Shown here piece after piece: positions 33,001 through 42,000 of a stretch of DNA of 64,000 bases. How positions within the stretch are numbered: position 1 is the first letter of the stretch; each line of letters starts with the position of its first letter. The stretch is from Bdellovibrionales bacterium (GTDB lineage Bacteria; Bdellovibrionota; Bdellovibrionia; Bdellovibrionales; UBA1609). The position numbers are program-made. The stretch is taken from contig OZ241456.1 in NCBI GenBank assembly GCA_965200875.1, positions 1,184,001 to 1,248,000 on the forward strand. The letters run 5' to 3'.

Positions 33001-36000
33001 TTCCATACTTTTTTCTGGCCGCAGATAACATCCCATGAACAATAGAATCAATGACCACTTTTCGCTCTATACCTCTATCCTTGCTTACCTGATCAATAAG
33101 CCTACCCAACTCAGAAAAAACATTTGTTATTGTACTCATATTTTGCTCCTTTTTTTTGCCTAAACTAAAATACTGTACGCGCTTTTGTAATAATATTTAC
33201 AGGAATTGTCCAATTCAAAAAACCATCATTTACGCTTATTATATTGTTCTCAAACTTGCATAGCTTTCCATATAATATCGTTTTTTGCCTCTTTTTCTCT
33301 GATTTTTTATCATAACAAGTCACTGGCTGGCTAGTGTGAATTTTTACAGTTTCCCCAACAGCCGACAAAAAATGCCAGTCTTTTTTAAGAAATCTCTCCA
33401 AACCTGGGCTGGATACTTCACATTTGATATTCTTCATTCCTTCCGACTCCAGTAAAAATAACAAGGATTCCATAAACTTACCACAAAGGTTCAAGTCAAC
33501 AGGATTTTTTTCACTGGCAATATATACTCTTAGCAGATTGGCCTTGAACTCTATATCATAAATACGCACCTTGTTCATTTTGCCAGCTGTATTAATCATC
33601 TGATTTAATTTCAAATCAGATGATTCTTTTTCCCTTTTAGTTTTTTTACAACTGTTCTTTTGCATTTATGCTCCCAAATTCCAAATCCTTTTTTCAAAAA
33701 ATCAAGTGATAACAATGTGTTAATAGCTTAATCACGAATCACTATTCAAGTCTTAAAAAAATCAAACACAAAAAAAGAGGGCCTTCTCAGACCCTCTTTA
33801 CTCTGAGTAAGCTACTAAATAAAATTTGTAAAATCAAATATTTTTTATAAAAAAACACAGAAATATTGGCGTTTTTTAATTTGAGCTATCACCTTTTCTT
33901 AATCAATCAGGTTTATAAACCTTAAGAAAATTTTTTCTGTCATTGCTGGCTTCAGTTTTGTCTGACTTTTTATTGTATTCTTTATTATGTTATTATCCGT
34001 TATGCAAATGATTATTTTCACCTAAAACCTTTGCAATCAATGAGTTTATCCGTACTGCACATAACAAAAATACGATCGGAAATTCGTTTAAAAATATCAT
34101 CATGCAGAGAACCAAAAGAACTAACACGCTTATGTACATTATCAGGCTTTATTTTATCCCATGAAAGACCTTGACCATTTTCAGCCTCTTGGGCTTTCGC
34201 CAATTCTCCCTCTAAAACCTGAGCATCTTCACCTTCCTTCTCGCTTTAGGAGATAAAAAAGCATTGGATTCCCTTGTTGATGAAGAAACATTAACTCTCT
34301 TAGATAGCTCCCTTTATCCCTCTTTGGCAGACAACAAGCAAATTGTTCTGGATTTGAGAATAAGACTCAGTACCGGAGAAACTGTGAATGTGGAAATACA
34401 GTCTGTCTTAAAAATAGGTTTTTTGAAAAGAGTGCTTTTTTATTGGTCTAGACTTTACACGGAGAGTTTAAAGAAGTCAGCAGATTACAGCAGTATTTGC
34501 CCTGCATATTCCTTGATTTTCACAGACTTTGATGTTCTTCCGGTAAAAAAGTATAGAGATTTTATCAATTCCTTTTCTTTGCGATCGGATAAAGATCCAC
34601 ATTCTTCCTTGATCGATGATGAAAAGATAGTGTTTGTGGAATTAAGTAAGTTTATGAGAGCGAGGCCAGAGAGTCTGAAGGAGATAGTTGATTTGCGGGA
34701 CTTATGGTGCTATCTTTTAAAAGAGTCCTGCCACATAGGAAAAAGAGAGTGGGATATATTATCAACGAGTAAGGGGGAAGAGATGAGAAGAGCAATGGAA
34801 CATTTAAAAGATTTGTCCCAGGATGAGGATTTGCGCCGAGAAGAGGAAGCACGAGAGAAGTTTTTAAGAGATCAGCGTGCAGAGAAAGCTTATGCCTTTA
34901 ACAAAGGCCGAGAAGAAGGCATGGAACAAGGTTTGAAGACAGGCATGGAACAAATAGCTTTGAATATGCTCAAAAAAAATATGCAGATTTCTGATATCAT
35001 TGAAATCACTGGTGTATCAGCAGAGAAAATTAAAGAGTTACAGGAAAGCTTAAAGCTCTAATTTGTCACCCGTGAAACACCCTTTAACATATTTCTATCA
35101 TAATGAGTTTTCCGTCTTTAGATCGAAGCTCTTTAACCCGTTGGAGACAAAGAATGGGAAAGGAAAAGCTTACTCTCTTGCTGAGCGAGGTGAGCTTAAG
35201 ACAGTGATAGTGGATACAACTATTATGGAGAAAGCCATAGCCTTCCCAACAGCCAGCAGACTTTATTTTAAGGCTTTGGCGAGTTCGGCTTTGAGCACAC
35301 CGCGACTGAAAGACGCGTGTGTGGCAAAACGCATGTTTGAGACCGAGCGGTGAAGTATGAGCAAATAAGCTGTACATATAAACACTCTTTTTCACGGGCC
35401 ACTTAAGATAATACGTTTGCCAAATCTCCCATAAAAACCATGTTTAGCGATATCAAACCCTCGAGATCATTTTGGCACGGATTTTGCATGAACTATTTAT
35501 TAACAATAAACCACTTTTTTTAAAGGAGCTTTACCATGAAAACAAATCGTAGCAAATTTTTAAACTTAAGCCAGGACCTCATGTTCAAGACCTATTTCTC
35601 TAAAAACAAAGAAGTCCTGAAATCTCTTTTAAATGCCTTTTTGCCTCTTCCTCCCAATCAAAAAGTGCAAGATATATCCTTCATAGGAGATAAAAAAGCA
35701 TTGGATTCCCTTGTTGATGAAGAAACATTAACTCTCTTAGATAGCTCCCTTTATCCCTCTTTGGCAGACAACAAGCAAATTGTTCTGGATTTGAGAATAA
35801 GACTCAGTACCGGAGAAACTGTGAATGTGGAAATACAGTCTGTCTTAAAAATAGGTTTTTTGAAAAGAGTGCTTTTTTATTGGTCTAGACTTTACACGGA
35901 GAGTTTAAAGAAGTCAGCAGATTACAGCAGTATTTGCCCTGCATATTCCTTGATTTTCACAGACTTTGATGTTCTTCCGGTAAAAAAGTATAGAGATTTT

Positions 36001-39000: not shown

Positions 39001-42000
39001 GAGTCCAATTTTTAAGATAAAACTTAAAGAGATCATCTTGTCCTTCTCTGAGAACCAACCCCCTAGTCATGGCCTCTGCAAAGGAGCTTGGATTGGAAAA
39101 CATCTCTCCAGAATCAGAAAACGCCTCCTCACAAGACATTGCGTAAGACATTGATTGAAAAAAAACCAGCAGAAAAGCCAGTAAAAAATGATAACTTTCA
39201 AAACGCATAATGTATTATATATGTAGTTATGATTCCAAACAAACAGAGACCTTTAAAAAAGATATTTTCATTAAAAAAACAACCCTCTTAATGTAAAATT
39301 TACATTAATCATCTCTTTGAAAACGCATCACAGGACTTCATATTCGTTAAAAAGACTTTTTCCCGGATAACCAACAATGTACTTTTTGCCGGTTTTTGAC
39401 AAAAGACTGTGTCATTTTTTAAATATTTTTGCTGGAAAAACAGCTTTAAACGGCTTTAATCAGTTTTAAACAGATTTTAATATTGAAAAATTGACCTCTC
39501 CGGTACTTTCATTTAATTTAGTAAGAAAGAGGAAAATTTTAAATATTTTGGATTTTAATATGGTGTCTGTTTCAAAAAAATCATTAAAAACATACGAAGT
39601 TTGTATTGGAGACTGTTCTTTAAGGCTGAAATCTCAGCATAATCCCGATACTTTGAATGAAATTGTTCAAGTAGTGGAACAACAAATACGTTGTTCAAAA
39701 GAGTATAATCGGAACTTATCCATGCAAAAAGCATTTGTGTTGTCTTGCTTGAATATAGCTGAAGAGCTTGTTTGTCTCAAACAGGCCTTACGGCGACAGA
39801 TGAACCTTATGGAGTCTTCAGTTCAATCCATTTTTTCTGAATTAAAATCTTCCTCTACAAATATATCAAAATAACGGCAAAACCGAATACGGTTGAAAAG
39901 CCAAATAATTTGATAATGCAAGAGGAAACTGATAGTGTCTAAAACAATAAATAGCTTTCATAAGCAACAATCATATTATTCTTATCAGACAGATCACTCT
40001 GTCATTCGTGTTAAAGAGGTAAAAAGAAAACTCTTTAGAACTAAAAATAACAGCCGGAAAAAATCAGAACTGAAAAAAGCTTCTCAAGAGCTTTCCAAAG
40101 TTCTTTCTCAGCTGGATATATGGAAAAAGAATTTAACTGTGGCGACTTACCGTGCTTTGCCTAGTGAGCTGTCAACGGAAAGTTTTCAGCAGAAACACAA
40201 AAACAAATGTCGATTTGTTTTTCCTCAAATAAAGGAGAAAACAAATGAAATGAAGTTTGTTTTTGCAGATTTGTTGGACGATCAAAGCTGGGAGCCTAGT
40301 CCTTGGCTTGGAGGCTGGCAACCTTCCAACGAAGAAGAAGTGCCTTTACAGAAAATAGATGTGTTTCTTGTTCCGGGATTGGCTTTCGATCGGGAAGGAC
40401 ACAGGCTGGGCCGTGGCAAAGGTTTTTACGACAGAGTTTTATGTCAGGCGAAAGGCATTAAGATAGGCTTGGCGGGTGTACATCAAATATCAGACGAGAT
40501 TCTGCCAAATGAGAGTCACGATATTAAGGTGGATGCTGTCGTCACTGATTGTTTTTTGCTTGTTCCTTTAAAACACTCACAGTTTTTTGCAGAGGAAGTG
40601 TAACTTTTTGAGTTCAGATGAACCTGTAAGTAAGGAACATGATAAAAATGTTTGAATTGTTCTGGTTATCTCGTCCAAACGGGATCCTAACAAAGAGTAA
40701 AAGGAGAGCAGTAAAGTGACAGATTCATTTTGGGTTTTAGCAAGTGCCTTAACCGGTTTTTTCATGGGTTCTTTGGTTTTTATTTTTTATTTACGTATTT
40801 CTCAAGGACGCAGAAAAAAGAATATAAAAAAAGAAATGAACTTTATTATTAATCAGGCAAAATCTCAAGCTCTGCGCATTGAAAAAAATGCTCTTTCCAA
40901 AGCACGAGATACAGAGCGTAAACTAAAGAGTAAATGGGAAATACTTGCGCGTAAAGAACAGAAACAAGCGGAAGATATGAAGTATCAGGCAGAAAAGAGA
41001 AAAGCACGTTTGGAAAGAGAATTTAGAAGAAAAAAAGAGGATCTGGAAATTCAAATCAGGGATATGGAAAGAGAAAAGGAAAAAGCTAAAGTACTGGGAC
41101 GACAGCTAGAAAGAGCCTCCAAGAAAACAAATGAAAAAATAGAAGAATTAAATGTGATAATAGAAAAAGCAACAGGTTTAACGAAAGAAGAAGCGCGGGA
41201 GGAAATCAAGAAAAATATGGAAGAGGAAATAAAAAAAGAAATAGCACCTCAGCTGATGCGTATGTCAGAGGACCTGAAAAAAAAATCAGAACAACAAGCG
41301 AAGTTAATTTTATCTCAGGTGATTGCACGTTTCGCTTCAGAAGTTTCCACGGAAAAAACAATCACCTCCATTACTATTGAAAATGAGGAAACAAAAGGAA
41401 AGATTATAGGGCGGGAAGGTCGTAATATCAGAGCTTTGGAATCAGCCTGTGGAGTGGATATCATTATTGATGAAACTCAGGAGGCCATTCTTATTTCCTG
41501 TTTTGATTCTGTTCGAAGAGAAGTAGCCGTGAGATCCATAAACCATTTATTGGAAGAGGGAAGAGTACATCCGGCTCGAATCGAAGAGATGGTGAGCAAG
41601 ATTAAAAGAAACATATTTACTTCTATGATGGAAGAGGGAAAACAGGTTTGTTTTGACTTAGGTATTCATGATGTGAAACCAGCTCTTGTGGAAAGTTTCG
41701 GTTCTTTGAAATACCGTTTTATAGAGGGAAATAATGTTTTAAAGAGCAGTATTGAGGTAGCTCAGCTGGCTGGTTTGATTGCGGGTGAAATAGGTATTGA
41801 AGAGAAATATGCGAAAAGAGCTGGTCTGTTGCATGCTATCGGGTTGAGTGTGGATCATCGTATAAAGGGTAGTTACTCGCAAGTAGGTTCGGAATATGCA
41901 CGAAAACAGGGAGAATCAGAAGTGATTTGTCAGGCTATCCTTTGCCACAGAGGGGAAGTTCCGGCACAGTCTGTTTTGGATCATGTTGTACAGTCTGCTT

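Follow-up and report, generated by a model that had tools for sequence, protein, structure and literature searches.

Complete loss of the signal recognition particle and a candidate membrane anchor on ribosomal protein uL29 in uncultured Bdellovibrionales

How membrane proteins are inserted once the signal recognition particle (SRP) has been lost is the question raised by the chromosome of an uncultured Bdellovibrio relative, of which a 64,000-nucleotide stretch (the window) was analysed and in which positions 34000-40000, upstream of zapA, had been marked in an earlier note as the place of a lost ftsY. The SRP is essential in most bacteria and few are naturally without it, extremely reduced insect symbionts among them. 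SRP loss was already known from Leptospira (all species), Dehalococcoides and SAR86 (PMC4758666, in part), which are likewise without Ffh, FtsY and SRP RNA and retain the Sec translocon.

The complete loss of Ffh, FtsY and the 4.5S RNA from this genome, as put forward in that note, was found to be real. The best PF00448 score in the genome was 19.1 bits, below the 22.7 cut-off, RF00169 matched nothing and PF02978 gave no candidate. Rfam had no match over positions 30000-46000 of the window. The tblastn search of the genome with seven Ffh and eight FtsY queries from family members gave a best E of 0.003, and the profiles built from family Ffh and FtsY matched just weak P-loops, with an Mrp/ParA-type ATPase at E 0.0013 among them. 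An nhmmer profile from five family 4.5S RNAs gave a best E of 3.8 in the genome, and left-out family RNAs were recovered by the control at E 9e-9, 4e-3 and 4e-9. The chromosome had been described as a closed circle with a Sec set, and both descriptions were upheld by a 239-aa ORF spanning the end-start junction of contig C1, a GC skew of two clean halves, and the presence of SecY, SecE, SecG, YajC, SecD, SecF, SecA, YidC and trigger factor.

Across the family, PF00448 was found in 78 of 109 genomes (the earlier count was 79, and its zeros stood), being present in 0/15 genomes of g1, the genus of this genome, 0/10 of g18, 0/4 of g30 and 78/80 of the other genera. RF00169 was found in 72/109 genomes, 0/29 in the three genera and 72/80 in the remaining ones, so the loss was indeed common to the whole genus and two more genera. 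One further genome, G301, was found to lack the M domain and the RNA and was not counted as a loss, as it contained PF00448 and was in 210 contigs. That SRP genes are present and simply unassembled or too divergent is hardly credible. Completeness estimates were 83-95% and absence was read from homology searches, but the genes were found in 0/29 genomes, 12 of them single-contig, controls were recovered in every search, and the gap upstream of dnaX, in which relatives carry ffs within 185-301 bp, was <100 bp in 12/28 SRP-less genomes. In this genome, a GC-rich stretch upstream of dnaX was considered as a 4.5S remnant and rejected, since it matched the start of a decayed opposite-strand protein gene kept by relatives.

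In 19-protein trees, g1, g18 and g30 were found to form one clade (SH-aLRT 100 under both LG+G4 and LG+C20 PMSF), in agreement with the probable single loss proposed before; ffh, ftsY and ffs were deleted once, in the ancestor of the three genera. Bin G293 has two S10 operons, of which the second did not enter the tree; the one that did falls with genus g94. The earlier account stands for these genera, but a second loss was overlooked by it, as was the uL29 tail described below. PF00448, PF02978 and RF00169 were found in 0/4 genomes of family f11 of the same order, and a single origin of this loss and that of g1, g18 and g30 was rejected (p-AU 4.3e-7). Family f11 is thus a second, independent SRP loss.

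The genes at the marked place were as described (Table 1). The gene ftsY was found directly before zapA in the relatives G070, G069 and G072 and one gene off in G007, but away from zapA in G008, G010 and G014. A different, divergently oriented gene was found to precede zapA in 10/11 other g1 genomes; the Rpn-like and ankyrin genes are therefore late insertions and were rejected as a replacement or scar of the SRP, and the view that the place marks the SRP loss is not supported.

Table 1. Features of the window, with positions, strand and basis of assignment.
Feature	Position	Strand	Basis
secY, ordinary; ribosome-facing loops as in SRP-bearing relatives	456..1769	-	PF00344 E 5e-110; alignment
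rpmC (uL29), 183 aa: 60-aa core and ~120-aa C-terminal tail	6187..6738	-	PF00831 on residues 5-57 only
uL29 motif 2, R174-G183 (RRSFFRRKSG), second basic-aromatic patch	6190..6219	-	conservation
uL29 motif 1, K153-K162 (KKWFGFFGSK), candidate membrane-interface anchor	6253..6282	-	conservation, aromatic clustering
uL29 lysine-rich linker, ~residues 62-152, predicted disordered	6283..6555	-	identity, pLDDT
rplW (uL23), ordinary, without extension	9623..9901	-	
rpsJ (uS10), unusual load of clade-specific substitutions	11564..11887	-	diagnostic columns
PD-(D/E)XK Rpn-like gene 1, late insertion	34264..35061	+	PF12784
PD-(D/E)XK Rpn-like gene 2, late insertion	35536..36534	+	PF12784
Ankyrin-repeat gene, late insertion	36629..39208	-	PF00023/PF12796
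zapA - 5-FTHF cyclo-ligase - RNase Y - tyrS block; ftsY upstream in some SRP-bearing relatives	39491..43567	+	Pfam; synteny

SecA was retained in 23/23 SRP-less genomes tested, and no gained domain was visible in SecA, SecY or YidC. YidC was single-copy in 28/29 SRP-less genomes and carried a tail of 7-32 aa (21 SRP-less genomes) versus 7-20 aa (20 SRP-bearing genomes); neither mark of a ribosome-binding insertase of the Oxa1/YidC2 type, a long basic tail at the C-terminus or duplication of YidC, was found. No trigger factor was recovered from G085, G088 and G031, the one in G083 was cut to 326 aa, and trigger factor was weak also in SRP-bearing G011. In uS10, 11/106 columns were diagnostic for the SRP-less clade, versus 0-4% in 18 other proteins; that they evolved convergently in response to SRP loss was rejected, f11 being without them. 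A displacement of uL24 tied to SRP loss was likewise rejected, uL24 being absent from the spc operon and encoded elsewhere in 41/41 family genomes; two queries did not find it in G092.

The ribosomal protein uL29 borders the tunnel exit and is contacted by the SRP and SecA (PMC8082313, in part). In 14/14 g1 genomes that have the gene, the open frame of uL29 was found to be 150-246 aa; it did not exceed 135 aa in 90 further genomes of the family, and the g1-type tail was seen in 0/90 of these. The rpmC gene lies in the same window as the marked zapA region, 28 kb from it. The tails of g1 contained 75-180 fast-changing, lysine-rich residues with a conserved aromatic patch and no match in Pfam; the ESM Atlas contained just ordinary L29 clusters below 0.9, the PDB short uL29s only, and plasmids no match. 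After removal of P0021 and P0022 (mis-started duplicates) and P0024 (truncated), 47 homologs were found to have a mean pairwise identity of 0.18 in the linker, for which AlphaFold2 gave a pLDDT mostly <55 and no helix, versus 0.60 in motif 1, and the aromatic cluster of motif 1 exceeded 95% of shuffles in 45/47 homologs. Motif 1 contained conserved W (45/50 sequences), F (44/50), G (39/50) and F (41/50), followed by motif 2 with conserved F178 (44/50) and K181 (45/50) and an identity of 0.60; motif 2 was missing from several deep-branching g1 members. As read from these sequences, a tail whose cationic linker changes freely and whose aromatic patch is conserved was fixed in g1 after the SRP loss.

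The patch resembles a membrane-targeting sequence, the tail containing a short cationic stretch with clustered aromatic or aliphatic residues near a terminus and a conserved pattern. A Wimley-White 7-mer of <= -2.5 kcal/mol was found in 14/14 g1 uL29 tails, 0/35 other g1 ribosomal tails and 1/45 tails from SRP-bearing genomes. Among 50 representatives of long uL29 (>=90 aa), the threshold was reached by 14/17 of the g1 type and 0/33 others, many of them lysine-rich-tailed; of the g1-type tails below it, one ends FLKKLFG and two are short. In deep-branching g1 members the letters of the patch differ and the basic-aromatic pattern is retained, as would be expected for lipid contact. The helical hydrophobic moment of the tails was 0.39-0.79, above shuffles in 5/50; AlphaFold2 gave no helix at the patch in its lipid-free model, and a genome-wide amphipathic-helix scan did not pick up uL29 itself.

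In f11 another ribosomal protein, bL17, was extended. In g94 the extension contains a transmembrane (TM) helix and a thioredoxin; in g93 it is a basic tail, likewise long, with S-I-F-G at its end. The bL17-TM-thioredoxin (TlpA) fusion was found in 2/2 g94 genomes and 11 full-length clusters, with a hydropathy of 2.4-3.1 and the CxxC intact, and one fusion contained RRWFGFLSR immediately upstream of the TM helix. In the SRP-bearing sister G297, bL17 was short and thioredoxin had a gene of its own. The g94 fusion and the g1 uL29 tail are both large-subunit proteins of SRP-less Bdellovibrionales with a lysine-rich linker and an aromatic patch, but differ in origin, in protein and in the anchor, which would be integral in g94 and peripheral in g1.

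Low-complexity tails were found on many ribosomal proteins of these reduced lineages, so tails arise easily. It is conceivable, if improbable, that drift in small host-associated genomes, by stop-codon loss, produced both the tails and the bL17 fusion without any relation to SRP loss. Drift is favoured by the long tails that uL3, uL4, uS5, uL15, uS17 and bL21 carry here as well as in G008, G011 and G014, which have the SRP, and by the position of the thioredoxin gene, which in relatives just follows rplQ. However, these other tails are patchy and aromatic-poor (0.65 W+F per 100 aa versus 4.8 in uL29), conservation in the uL29 motifs is about threefold that in the linker, and the bL17 fusion stays intact over 11 clusters down to 64% identity.

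The best reading, put at a probability of about 0.55, is that ribosomes are leashed to the membrane, so that nascent membrane proteins would reach SecY or YidC without the SRP. The patch would be taken up by the inner leaflet and the linker would keep the tunnel exit close to the membrane, so that ribosomes would remain at, or return to, the membrane regardless of the mRNA translated. An emerging TM segment would then find SecYEG or YidC by a short-range search, assisted by SecA if needed, and the cell would thereby no longer require SRP and FtsY for recognition and delivery.

The sister genera were found to contain no consistent leash, so the leash would be later than the SRP loss. The uL29 was short in 10/10 g18 genomes (one had a tail of 38 aa that lacked the patch) and 4/4 g30 genomes. 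In g18 there were scattered candidates only, with a patch in 4/29 tails and an L-F end of uL24 in 5/10 genomes, and in g30 a patch was found in 0 of 9 ribosomal tails, with none on uL22, uL23, uL24, uL29, bL17, bL32, bL34 and bL21 where read. The first bypass, perhaps still used by g18 and g30, was probably weaker (direct capture of ribosomes by SecY or SecA, slow translation), and the leash would be a later improvement of at least two origins.

The survival of g18 and g30 without the tail also favours a different, rather unlikely explanation, a general SRP bypass in which SecA and SecY capture ribosomes directly, translation is slower and cells are small, the uL29 tail binding rRNA or a protein or taking over from the Ffh M domain, or from a trigger factor in decay, the shielding of emerging hydrophobic segments. 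E. coli outlives SRP loss through slower translation, one suppressor lying in the S10 operon's Shine-Dalgarno sequence (PMC8299109, in part), and the retained SecA and many uS10 changes fit such a bypass; the missing or shortened trigger factors would suit a chaperone role of the tail, and the Arg/Lys-rich motif 2 would suit RNA. Against it, motif 1 conserves a pattern and not letters, f11 has a true TM helix, trigger factor is weak in an SRP-bearing genome too, and SecA, SecY and YidC show no new domain. Very improbable is an unrecognised non-homologous targeting factor common to g1, g18 and g30, for which the g30 genomes without a visible leash and a lineage-specific low-complexity membrane protein adjoining the Sec genes of Leptospira (PMC4758666, in part) can be cited, but the yidC neighbourhood did not differ between 20 genomes without the SRP and 20 with it, and no recurring new gene was found at the ffs or zapA sites of SRP-less genomes.

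The leash has partial counterparts in known systems. The uL29 tail is similar to the membrane-targeting sequences of MinD, FtsA, MreB and FtsY, which like it have a short basic-aromatic stretch ending a flexible linker and a pattern that outlasts the sequence. Such sequences are described on these four proteins (PMC6158289, in part); the uL29 patch differs in being on a core ribosomal protein, with a second patch in many g1 members, and a regular amphipathic helix in it would be putative. The Jag proteins of this family have a similar basic-aromatic pattern N-terminally. Mitochondria lost the SRP and tether ribosomes through Mba1/mL45, the Oxa1 C-terminal tail, Mdm38 and Mrx15 (PMC8321541, in part), and by analogy the large subunit would be held at the membrane here, with insertion without a delivery step. 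The uL29 tail, being without a Pfam match, would be an analogue of these tethers at most. Here the tether would extend a ribosomal protein that is universal in bacteria, the tail of YidC is not long, SecYEG and SecA are retained and the proteome is mostly soluble.

SRP loss alone is known, whereas the uL29 tail with its aromatic patch is new. In a literature search with subscription papers thinly covered, no report was found of a uL29 C-terminal extension with an amphipathic or membrane role, also in Mycoplasma, or of a bL17-TM-thioredoxin fusion, and main texts, whose supplementary gene-absence tables might mention it, contained no report of SRP loss in Bdellovibrionota. In distinction from Leptospira, Dehalococcoides and SAR86, 78/80 other family genomes keep the SRP here, two losses lie in one order, and exit-side ribosomal proteins gained candidate anchors, of which the available part of PMC4758666 contains none. 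The independent lineages behind the leash pattern number two only. It is a tentative generalisation, put at somewhat below even odds, that SRP-losing bacteria can build membrane attachment into the ribosome, and may have done so at least twice in Bdellovibrionales, by a peripheral aromatic patch on uL29 and by a basic tail or TM helix on bL17, repeating in bacteria the mitochondrial exchange of the SRP for a tethered ribosome. In this order two natural losses are dated and can be set against close relatives that keep the SRP, and the candidate fix is small and portable; these bear on whether membrane proximity can replace the SRP, as has been suggested for the way in which mitoribosome tethering arose.

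The genome was found to contain no Ffh, FtsY or signal recognition particle (SRP) RNA, a claim of the earlier note that was borne out by profile, tblastn and RNA searches. The SRP GTPase profile (PF00448) reached at best 19.1 bits in the genome, below the cut-off, followed by no candidate for the M-domain profile and no match for the SRP RNA model (RF00169). With 7 Ffh and 8 FtsY proteins of the family, tblastn of the genome gave a best E of 0.003 and the profiles built from them found weak P-loops only. The best E of a 4.5S profile of five sequences was 3.8 in the genome, and its left-out controls were recovered at 9e-9, 4e-3 and 4e-9. 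The assembly contained two contigs, and C1 (1,831,459 bp) was confirmed as a closed circle by a 239-aa ORF spanning the end-start junction and by GC skew in two halves. The remaining Sec system was present, as had been stated, and at least six helices were counted by simple hydropathy in 48 of the 1503 ORFs of at least 100 aa. The loss of SRP in this genome is real, with next to no room for doubt. FlhF, the third SRP-type GTPase, was also not found in the whole genome, which is consistent with the lost flagellum; small SRP-bearing relatives contained two SRP-type GTPase matches, not three.

The loss was found to be common to the genus of the studied genome (g1) and its sister genera g18 and g30, as proposed before, with PF00448 and RF00169 each in 0/29 genomes. 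Of the other genomes of the family, PF00448 was found in 78/80 and RF00169 in 72/80. In a tree of 19 concatenated proteins (18 ribosomal proteins and SecY; 41 genomes), g1, g18 and g30 were placed on one branch with SH-aLRT 100, and the same support was found in a rooted tree (43 rows) and under a site-mixture model (22 rows). Their nearest relative, genus g8, has kept SRP. In a class-wide scan the M domain was found in 258/285 genomes, and the misses were 22 genomes of this clade, one fragmented genome with the GTPase, and four genomes of a second family of the order, f11 (genera g93 and g94; three single-contig), in which the GTPase and the RNA were missing too. The f11 genomes grouped with G297, which has SRP, and one shared origin for every SRP-less genome was rejected (p-AU 4.3e-7, 25 rows); therefore, SRP was lost two times within one order. 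The bin G293 (L262, L263) contained two S10 operons, one almost identical to that of g94, and is probably a mixed bin.

In relatives, ffs was found directly before dnaX, and the gap before dnaX that holds it measured 185-301 bp in 4 controls. The gap was <100 bp in 12/28 SRP-less genomes and 82-144 bp where the ancestral divergent neighbour was close; in G085, which has no gap value in this count, a stop codon abuts the dnaX start. The ffh gene precedes rpsP in relatives, and rpsP of the studied genome was found instead behind an unrelated gene. The ftsY gene was behind smc in most relatives read and before zapA in some. The Rpn-like and ankyrin genes before zapA, taken in the earlier note to mark the former place of ftsY, are not a scar of the loss, because a different gene precedes zapA in 10/11 other g1 genomes.

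Among the stand-in candidates for SRP, uL29 is the clear change. In all 14 g1 genomes that gave a match, its open frame was 150-246 aa long; in 90 others it did not exceed 135 aa. Identity in 47 homologs was 0.71 in the core, 0.18 in the linker and 0.22 in the spacer, followed by 0.60 in each of two basic-aromatic patches, KKWFGFFGSK and RRSFFRRKSG. Divergent members contained GFLSRWVKRL, NWLGRLFGKKK, SFLKKLFG or GFFSRIFRRKK, so that the patches show a conserved pattern rather than conserved letters. An interfacial-hydrophobicity score set these tails apart from 35/35 other g1 ribosomal tails, 44/45 tails of SRP-bearing genomes and 33/33 long uL29s of other lineages. The motif resembles the membrane-targeting sequences of MinD, FtsA and FtsY. 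Short helices of this type are enough for membrane binding (PMC6158289), and uL29 lies at the tunnel exit, where it contacts SRP and SecA (PMC8082313). The tail would be a membrane leash easing SRP-free insertion, a reading given a probability of roughly 0.55.

Against the leash, g18 and g30 have a short uL29 although they lost SRP together with g1, which rules out that the tail made the loss possible. A helical-moment test was positive in 5/50 uL29 tails, uL29 was not picked up when the genome was scanned for amphipathic tails, AlphaFold2 gave a disordered tail, and long tails were frequent on ribosomal proteins of these genomes. No aromatic patch was found on any g30 protein read. Sporadic basic-aromatic patches were found in g18 on uS17 (L081, G030) and uL3 (L082, L083; G031, G032), and g18 uL24 (L139, L298-L301), perhaps patch-bearing, contained an L-F end plus up to two residues in 5/10 genomes.

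The usual substitutes were rejected: YidC was present in one copy with a short tail, and SecA and SecY contained no extra domain. Trigger factor was reduced to 326 aa in G083 (L166) and not found in the single-contig genomes G085, G088 and G031, but it was likewise eroded in one SRP-bearing genome. The C-terminal tail of SecG was long and consisted of proline-rich repeats.

In f11, the change was in bL17, which would sit close to the large subunit's exit side. In both g94 genomes it contained in frame a 54-78-aa lysine-rich linker, a hydrophobic helix and a thioredoxin with intact CxxC, and among the 120 long bL17s listed this fusion was found at full length in 11 clusters, with one fragment besides. 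One g94-type bL17 contained RRWFGFLSR ahead of the helix. The bL17 tail of g93 (2/2 genomes) was long and basic, ~135 aa in length, with S-I-F-G and lysines at its end; the G297 bL17 was 168 aa, with a separate thioredoxin gene.

In uS10 of g1, g18 and g30, an otherwise invariant Thr-His pair and a conserved C-terminal strand were lost; the 11 clade-specific changes, which include these, might reflect altered uS14, NusG or NusB contacts. The uL24 gene was missing between uL14 and uL5 in 41/41 family genomes and was not found at all in G092. No tmRNA was found by ARAGORN at default settings in the studied genome; a permuted two-piece candidate appeared at a relaxed threshold, and an SmpB-like gene was present. 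Two RNase Y-like genes were found in 28/30 genomes searched.

Coordinates of the features (G000, studied genome)
Feature	Location	Strand	Remark
uL14-uL5 interval	window 4926-5854		
uL29	window 6187-6738		183 aa
rpsJ (uS10)	window 11564-11887	-	11 substitutions diagnostic for g1+g18+g30
uS14	window 15500-15805	-	long, cysteine-poor type, outside spc operon
RNase Y-like	window 40716-42293		
RNase Y-like	G000:C1:552661-554172		
tmRNA candidate	G000:C1:283366-283722		
SecG	G000:C1:1631795-1632337	-	
uL24	G000:C1:1641358-1641579	-	short, behind bL28
bL17, fused via transmembrane helix to TlpA-like thioredoxin	L294:721-1854, L297:748-1854	-	G295, G296

The sections seen of a small-genome Bdellovibrionota account (PMC9944714) did not mention SRP, and in the literature searched no report was found of a self-anchored bacterial ribosome arising twice after SRP loss. 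In mitochondria, a tethered ribosome in place of SRP is the standard account (PMC8321541). Complete SRP loss is described for Leptospira, Dehalococcoides and SAR86 (PMC4758666), and the loss in the studied genome is therefore a further instance of a rare phenomenon already on record. It also speaks against the leash that E. coli is able to live without SRP by translating more slowly (PMC8299109), a route that may be the basal one.
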